From assembly GCF_051903065.1 (NCBI RefSeq), contig NZ_CP178438.1: a stretch of 64,000 bases of DNA. The stretch is one strand, 5' to 3'. Positions 29,901 through 31,958 of this stretch are shown in pieces. How positions within the stretch are numbered: position 1 is the first letter of the stretch; each line of letters begins with the position of its first letter. Position numbers and translations under genes: made by a program. This DNA comes from Escherichia coli (GTDB lineage: Bacteria > Pseudomonadota > Gammaproteobacteria > Enterobacterales > Enterobacteriaceae). The notes below the pieces were generated by a model. It was not told the DNA's origin. It made no database searches and saw only the letters and a program-made list of their open reading frames with translations.

Positions 29901-30910
29901 CGTTCCAGAGTGAAGGTACTGTCTTTCAGTTGGGCAACACCGGCGAATTCAGTCCCTGTTGCATGGGTAAAGCCAAACATCTTGTCGTAGGATGACAGCT
30001 GCACTCGCATCAAGCCATCGCCTTTGAGCGCATTGGTCAGCGTGTAATCTCCTGCACTGTTCGTTGATGCGAGAATGTCGAGCGTACCGGGGCTTGCAAT
30101 GGTTACTTCACTCGAACCCATGCCCGTTACCCCATCTGCCGTATGAGACGCAATGGTCAGGAGACCGTCATTGACCAGCGTTTTACCGCTATAAGTATTC
30201 CCTGCATTGAACACCGTATGGCCTGCATCATGGATCACTTTTCCGTCTTTATCGTCACCTGTAATCAGCATATCGACCTGGTAGCCGGCATCACTGTTAT
30301 TAGTATGATTAAAGACAAAAACACCTTCGCCAGAACCAAACTCTACTTTCGTCGCGTTGGTTATATACCCGGCATCTGCCGCCGCCTCACCGTGAGCTGC
30401 ACCAATGTTTAGCGTTCCTACAGCAGGTTCAAAAACACCTAAGTAAACTTCTCCACCTTCGACATTCAGCGTGCCGCTATTCGTCAGGGTTAACGAACCC
30501 GTACCAGATGTCCCTACGTACATATTGAATGTTTCAAGAAGAGAGTTCTGCCCATCCACCCTCACGTCGCCCTTACTTTTGTCATTGAGAGCTATCTGTG
30601 TATCACGCGCTTTAACTATACCTCCGGTGGTAATATTCAGTTCACCCGTGCCTAATACACCGACCTGTAGCAATTGGGCGTTAGTAGATGATGTCTTTAA
30701 ATTCCAGAGACTATCCGTTGAAATATTAACTATCCCCTTACCGGAGGCATTTCCTCCGATAAATCCATAGCCCGTTGAATTAAGGGTGGCACCATTACTG
30801 ACATTTACGATACCGCTACCAAAATTACCGACATTGATACCCACAGTATCGAACGATGATGTCGCATCCATCAGGTTCAGTGTGCCGATACCGCTTGCTT
30901 TATCGCCCAA
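26915..30910 (-). pseudogene. yneO: Autotransporter adhesin, 3' portion (passenger repeats plus C-terminal beta-barrel)
   Basis: 1331-aa ORF rich in G-x-G-TLN repeats and ending ...LGVKYSW (terminal aromatic); out of frame with the upstream part. Confidence 0.8.
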
Positions 30911-31958
30911 AAAGTAATATTTTGCGATACAAACTTACCGCCATCGCTAATATTGAGGTTTCCGACGCCCGCAACACCAATGGTGGTATAGACATTCTTA
31001 TTGACCTCCCACATCCCCCCCGTGGTGATGCTAACCTTCCCGACGCCGGTTTCTCCATAACCGAGTGAACTTCCTCCGTTGCTGACAACAAGCCCCTGAT
31101 TACTGATATTCATTTCGCCATGGCCGTCATAACCAAGATTAGTTCCGAGATTAGTGATAACGGAGTTCTTATCCTTAACAGTAATGTTGCCTGTGCCTGT
31201 TTCTTTCATCCCCGCAGTGATAATTCCCGAATCTACTTTGCCTTCACTCGAGACATTAAGTTCACCGTCGCCAGCATCACCGATATAGATATAGCGGAAA
31301 GCTTCGCCCGTTCCGAGGAAATTCCAATGCCCTTTATCGGTCACGTTGACGACACCGTGGGAACCGTCCTGAACGCCCACCAATGAATATTCTTTGTTAT
31401 TAATTAGTCCATTATTGGAAATATTGACTGCGCCATTACCGAAGTATCCATTATAGAGTCTGCGTACCGTGATGACAGAGTCTTGATCCTGCACATTCAG
31501 GGTTCCGACACCGGTGGCATTGCCACCGATAATCGTATTTTCAGCCGTAATCAGCCCACCCTCGCGAATAGTCGCCTCCCCAGTTCCTTGATTACCAATT
31601 TGAAATTCAATTGAGGAATCATTATTTTTTATTAGCCACTCGCCACCCTTTTCAACGACAACCTTACCATTACTGTTCGCTTGATATCCTAAAATGGCGA
31701 CTATTGAACTCGTGACGTAACCCTTATCCGTAATATTTAATGAGCCCGTACCGTAACTCCCTATTTCGAATAATTCGGTCGTCAAAACCGAGTCCTCTCC
31801 CTCAACATTAACCGTCCCGACGCCTGCAGCTTGAGTACCTAATCTTAAATAGCCTCCATCGACGTGACCCTTCTGTTTAATATTCAGCGTCCCCGTTCCG
31901 GATTGACCCACATTTAAAGGCCTTGCATTATTTCCGCTATCATACAATCGCCAGGTGC
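30877..31958 (-). pseudogene. yneO: Autotransporter adhesin, 5' portion; no signal peptide, N-terminus removed at the IS1 junction
   Basis: 356-aa ORF with the same repeat type; overlaps the downstream ORF at 30877-30910 in a different frame; abuts IS1 at 31959. Confidence 0.75.

Follow-up and report, generated by a model that had tools for sequence, protein, structure and literature searches.

Probable stepwise decay of an ECSE_1600-family autotransporter pseudogene through IS1 insertion, adjacent deletion and homopolymer loss in a clade of Escherichia coli

We analysed a 64,000-nucleotide stretch of Escherichia coli DNA (contig NZ_CP178438.1 of assembly GCF_051903065.1; hereafter, the window) at a locus where two minus-strand open reading frames (ORFs), of 356 and 1331 amino acids, lie next to a copy of the insertion sequence IS1. 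The ORF list of the window has hipA and hipB on one side of the locus and lsrK, lsrR and lsrA on the other, and the order hipA-hipB-autotransporter-lsrK-lsrR is that of annotated genomes including K-12, the conserved position of the ECSE_1600 family. The locus is a chromosomal ECSE_1600-family autotransporter of the AIDA-I type, at the position of the K-12 pseudogene yneO (b4696, formerly ydeK/ydeU). In profile searches, the 356-residue ORF corresponded to positions 130-479 of NCBIfam model NF011422 (ECSE_1600 family autotransporter) with 745 bits, and the 1331-residue ORF to positions 476-1806 with 3057.6 bits on its own, compared to a curated cut-off of 2335. Because both are collinear on NF011422, they are halves of one gene, its consecutive proximal and distal pieces. 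TIGR04393 type V secretion system (T5SS) repeats occur in both, five of them in the proximal piece, and the TIGR01414 beta-barrel takes up residues 871-1331 of the distal one. The ORF list, the collinearity and the shared repeats thus bear out a preliminary description of this DNA, which had assigned the two ORFs to the same repeat-bearing gene in different frames with an overlap at 30877-30910.

The orthologue in strain A30 (WP_240767911.1) is intact, with 1806 amino acids encoded by a 5421-nt gene, and shows the Pfam domains ESPR (PF13018), PATR, AC_1 (PF18883), pertactin (PF03212) and beta-domain (PF03797). The type Va (AIDA-I type) architecture of ESPR signal peptide, repeat passenger, autochaperone and C-terminal beta-barrel can be recognized in the window as well, its parts physically split by IS1. 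In place of a single uninterrupted ORF of ~1806 residues, the window copy has the IS1, a 213-bp deletion and a 1-nt deletion, and is a pseudogene of the ECSE_1600 family. The literature yielded genome-comparison mentions only, and no functional study of the yneO/ydeK/ECSE_1600 protein was found in it.

The start coordinates of the two ORFs are 1037 nt apart (1037 mod 3 = 2), and hence in different frames. Alignment to an intact orthologue, which the preliminary description had proposed as a check, locates the break: between window positions 26800-32100 and the A30 allele there are 114 substitutions and, in the gene body, exactly one indel, an A missing from a run that reads CCCAAAAAGT in the window (A5) and CCCAAAAAAGT in A30 (A6), the plus strand around the tract being ...TATCGCCCAAAAAGTAATA... 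and the change on the coding strand T6→T5. The intact coding strand runs ACT TTT TTG GGC GAT AAA (...ITFLGDKASGIGTLN...), whereas that of the window runs ACT TTT TGG GCG ATA AAG ... TGA (...ITFWAIKQAVSAH*), and with one A added in silico, the sequence between the IS1 junction and the natural stop becomes one open frame of 1680 codons. A single-base indel in the tract, as had been proposed, therefore accounts for the break; the run had been placed at 30908-30912 and actually lies one base to the right, at 30909-30913. Neither TTG from which the ORFs were listed is a real start: the one at 31947 is only the mechanical start of the 356-residue ORF, and the one at 30910-30908, two tract bases and the next G, is a mechanical call for the 1331-residue ORF. 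The intact gene holds seven homopolymer runs of at least 6 nt, the T6 in question among them, which make up 45 of its 5421 nt (0.8%). The position of the indel is not random, falling in a rare long homopolymer. Given what is established about how indels arise at runs, the base was most likely lost by replication slippage, which fits both the homopolymer position and an independent homopolymer frameshift in K-12 (see below).

Upstream of the frameshift, the 5' end of the gene is disrupted by IS1. With a length of 768 bp, terminal inverted repeats of ~23 bp, insA/insB with an A6C motif and a 9-bp target duplication taken as the marks of IS1 membership, the 768-bp element in the window shows the terminal repeats, insA/insB and the motif, and the 9-bp duplication is seen in ECNB21-M121 (NZ_CP083585.1), the nearest genome outside the group that carries A5. 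The A6C motif (AAAAAAC) is intact; a programmed -1 frameshift there makes InsAB', and it is the only site at the autotransporter locus where frameshifting is truly programmed. Beyond the element, the remnant at 32728-32898 matches Pfam ESPR (PF13018) with E = 1.5e-15. Next to the left end of IS1, the window has lost 204 bp of gene that the intact allele has (CDS, or coding sequence, nt 173-376); when it is compared with ECNB21-M121, the loss comes to exactly 213 bp, these 204 bp plus the left copy of the 9-bp duplication. A comparison of the junctions found no target-site duplication flanking this IS1 in the window, whose left IS1 end is the deletion junction and which therefore lacks one. Simple truncation or insertion by IS1 is ruled out by the missing duplication together with the 213-bp adjacent deletion at the junction. 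The 5' truncation by IS1 described earlier thus holds as a disruption of the 5' end but not as a plain truncation, for an insertion at CDS nt 172 was followed by the 213-bp deletion, and the ESPR remnant survives beyond IS1. The gene had also been called doubly inactivated; the frameshift and the IS1 are both present, but counting the IS1-adjacent deletion it carries three lesions: IS1, the 213-bp deletion and A6→A5. The features are collected in Table 1.

Table 1. Coordinates of the autotransporter pseudogene and its lesions in the window.
Feature	Position	Strand	Description
Distal autotransporter fragment	26915..30910	-	1331-aa ORF; rest of the passenger, autochaperone/pertactin region and C-terminal beta-barrel; residues 476-1806 of the intact protein; stop codon 26915-26917
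Proximal passenger fragment	30877..31958	-	Intact residues ~126-474 plus aberrant tail; 5' end adjoins IS1 at 31958/31959; ORF listed as 30877..31947, 356 aa
Out-of-frame tail	30877..30908	-	Shifted ...ITF-WAIKQAVSAH, TGA at 30879-30877; the intact protein has ...ITF-LGDKASGIGTLN there
A5 homopolymer	30909..30913	.	T5 in coding orientation; 1 nt lost here; A6 in intact and nearly all other alleles; intact CDS nt 1422-1427, codons 474-476
IS1-adjacent deletion junction	31958..31959	.	213 bp of ECNB21-M121 missing
IS1 element, 768 bp, IS1A-like	31959..32726	+	Terminal inverted repeats GGTGATGCTGCC.../...GGAGTCATTACC; insA-insB; A6C motif at 32265
N-terminal autotransporter remnant	32727..32898	-	Start codon plus 57 codons; ESPR extended signal peptide MNRIYRVIWNCTLEVFQACSELTRR...; opens with the surviving 9-bp IS1 target copy AACCGCTTA (32727-32735)

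ECNB21-M121 differs from the window by 8 and 7 substitutions over 16.6 and 20.0 kb, respectively (~15 single-nucleotide polymorphisms (SNPs) in 36.7 kb), and shares with it both the IS1, identical in orientation and target site, and the 171-nt ESPR remnant. Unlike the window, it has the 9-bp duplication AACCGCTTA on both sides of IS1, keeps the 204 bp beside the element and has A6 at the tract; its allele is annotated only as 'missing N-terminus'. This allele represents the state before the two later lesions. With the same IS1, an intact duplication, A6 and no deletion, it shows by parsimony that IS1 inserted before both the 213-bp deletion and the A6→A5 loss.

We probed complete E. coli genomes carrying the locus with tract sequences of 71-73 nt, A5 and A7 each being placed in the two main flank haplotypes. 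The 71-nt A5 probe had an exact match in 2 of 3993 genomes, 23CRST027 and 23CRST031, which are human faecal isolates from Ecuador and near-identical to the window. All other sampled matches span 72 nt and hence have A6; the A6 probe itself was matched exactly in 564 genomes, the remainder differing by SNPs in the flanks. No exact match in the ~4000 genomes was obtained for A5 in the other common flank haplotype, nor for A7 in either one. The one 71-nt match outside the clade, in CFSAN061761 (6001-6071 of its locus), was considered as an independent A5 and rejected: the tract there is A6, and the genome has instead lost a G/C independently ~30 nt away, at codon 484 (GTGTGCC→GTGTCC), so that there is no recurrence. 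The window is distinct from both Ecuadorian assemblies, since it carries a further IS1, in ydeP, and one SNP, neither of which they have. The A5 allele is therefore clade-specific and present in three assemblies, the window being the third genome of the clade. Within the IS1 of 23CRST031, G4 is changed to G3 in insB (window position 32456), and PGAP calls its transposase frameshifted.

The following order of events would account for these alleles. IS1 first inserted at CDS nt 172, cutting the promoter, the start codon and ESPR from the passenger and beta-barrel and thereby killing the gene. In the sub-lineage of the window, an IS1-mediated adjacent deletion later removed 213 bp, and A6 was shortened to A5, most likely by replication slippage, splitting the remaining frame into the 356- and 1331-residue ORFs. 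We hold such stepwise decay, with IS1 making the gene a pseudogene and the deletion and homopolymer loss following in the dead gene, to be highly probable.

Some points weigh against this reading. The 213-bp deletion and the frameshift are both in all three A5 genomes, and their order relative to each other is not separable; the lack of expression is read from the sequence. A5 might moreover be a sequencing or assembly error in a tract that is truly A6, which would leave IS1 and the adjacent deletion as the only real lesions. A 1-nt change in homopolymer length is the classic type of long-read error and a miscall here is possible; the three A5 assemblies are close relatives, two of them from one study, and could share a platform; and the G4→G3 change in insB of 23CRST031 may be a real mutation or indel noise. 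Nonetheless, the same A5 in three separate assemblies, as the only 1-nt indel in 36.7 kb compared to ECNB21-M121, argues that an artefact is unlikely, and a 13.2-kb comparison of the window with 23CRST027 shows not one indel. The absence of A5 or A7 here from ~4000 other assemblies, from all platforms and in either main haplotype, indicates that the site is not error-prone, and with 5-6 bases the tract is short for a systematic miscall. General noise in the assembly was rejected as well, all differences from ECNB21-M121, 23CRST027 and 23CRST031 having been listed with the tract as the sole 1-nt indel relative to the outgroup.

Readings that give the tract a function fare worse still. Many surface adhesins and autotransporters of other bacteria phase-vary via homopolymer tracts, and since the break here does sit in a homopolymer, the A/T tract could be thought of as a slipped-strand contingency switch for adhesin phase variation. 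We judge this very improbable. The tract is only 6 nt long and its length is effectively invariant, with A6 in essentially all of the ~4000 genomes, A5 in one clade and no A7; the gene is not otherwise intact, IS1 having decapitated it in the A5 clade and in its outgroup, and with the promoter and signal peptide already lost, the A5 clade cannot switch it ON; the gene is, besides, inactivated in other genomes at unrelated sites. Even less can be said for recoding, in which ribosomes slipping by -1 on C-UUU-UUG would pass the junction, restore ...TFLGDK... and make one protein from the two ORFs. Judging from the sequence, -1 re-pairing of tRNA-Phe on U5 is formally possible and would restore the ancestral peptide, but no canonical X XXY YYZ slippery heptamer was found at the junction, relatives encode the protein in one frame, so that the two-frame layout is not conserved, and IS1 has deprived the upstream ORF of its start codon, promoter and signal peptide; we find programmed frameshifting here scarcely credible. 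Just as slight is the chance that the T5/T6 run occasionally lets the frame be restored, whether through reversion or through slippage in transcription or translation, or that a promoter, fortuitous or carried by IS1, drives expression of the distal ORF as an active, signal-less truncated protein, and the data favour neither. Stepwise decay accordingly remains our reading: the frameshift, which plays no part in regulation, is a secondary and fixed mutation, probably neutral, of a gene that was inactive before it arose.

The case is a well-resolved example of stepwise pseudogene decay, in a gene for an accessory adhesin that many E. coli lineages carry in broken form. It matters very little and has no bearing on any open question, but its three lesions could serve as lineage markers for the clade, and it illustrates that not every frameshift in the gene of a surface protein is a phase switch.

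Elsewhere in the window, a second IS1 of 768 bp (14555-15322, plus strand), 1 nt different from the copy at 31959-32726, lies in ydeP with a 9-bp target duplication (CCATGCGGC). As 23CRST027, 23CRST031 and ECNB21-M121 all lack this copy, it transposed very recently. Together the two copies form direct repeats on either side of ~16.6 kb that include ydeP', the ydeQRS/fim-like operon, hipBA and most of the autotransporter gene; such a layout could undergo deletion or behave as a composite transposon. At ~11943-12190, ~2.3 kb present in ECNB21-M121 are gone, comprising ydeM and most of ydeN (a sulfatase maturase and a sulfatase), and the window is also without the IS1 found between yddA and ydeM in ECNB21-M121; the ydeM/ydeN deletion is common to both Ecuadorian genomes, in which a truncated sulfatase is annotated. 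By correspondence with the annotation of ECNB21-M121 (35590-37231 of its locus), the region at ~42175-43816, downstream of lsrG, holds a truncated IS200/IS605 tnpA and an intact gene for the TnpB/InsQ RNA-guided endonuclease. A truncated helix-turn-helix gene (the K-12 yneL pseudogene) was placed beside hipA at ~24570-24840 from the annotation of relatives; since it is 'missing N-terminus' in every relative examined, it is an old shared pseudogene, unlike the clade-specific lesions of the autotransporter gene. The only Rfam family above threshold in the window is the Hfq-binding small RNA STnc560, with a full-length match at 59792-60005 on the minus strand (281.9 bits), and a tRNA scan of the window found no tRNA genes; neither scan of the window returned anything relevant to the autotransporter locus.

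The same gene is broken in other lineages too. Its intact form is represented by ECSE_1600 of E. coli SE11 and by orthologues such as that of A30, which have the same architecture as the window copy and 98-99% nucleotide identity to it but are single intact ORFs, in contrast to the window copy with its IS1, 213-bp deletion and frameshift. According to the SE11 genome paper (PMC2608844, Table 4), ECSE_1600 is an 1806-residue autotransporter with a pertactin motif; SE11 and HS carry it intact, in MG1655, E24377A and O157 Sakai it is disrupted, and B2 strains lack it. When ten genomes were sampled evenly down the match list, the gene was annotated as 'frameshifted' in four (5420, 5422, 5420 and 5177 nt) and was intact, with 5421 nt, in the other six. 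The allele of the window itself already bears the RefSeq/PGAP label 'frameshifted; incomplete; missing N-terminus', and what we describe is the ordinary decay of a known pseudogene. K-12 yneO is the same gene in the same synteny, and likewise a pseudogene split by a 1-nt homopolymer indel, but there a G run at CDS nt ~3955 (codon 1318) has gained one base, and K-12 has A6 at the tract and no IS1. DJH_183sputum and about a dozen similar genomes resemble the window in having the autotransporter gene inactivated by an IS1; in DJH_183sputum, however, the element is at another site (7336-8085 of its locus) and leaves an N-terminal remnant of 726 rather than 171 nt, in a lineage 97.9% identical over the locus, and is hence an independent event. 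These are clinical isolates, and IS1 insertions in this autotransporter gene are thus recurrent.
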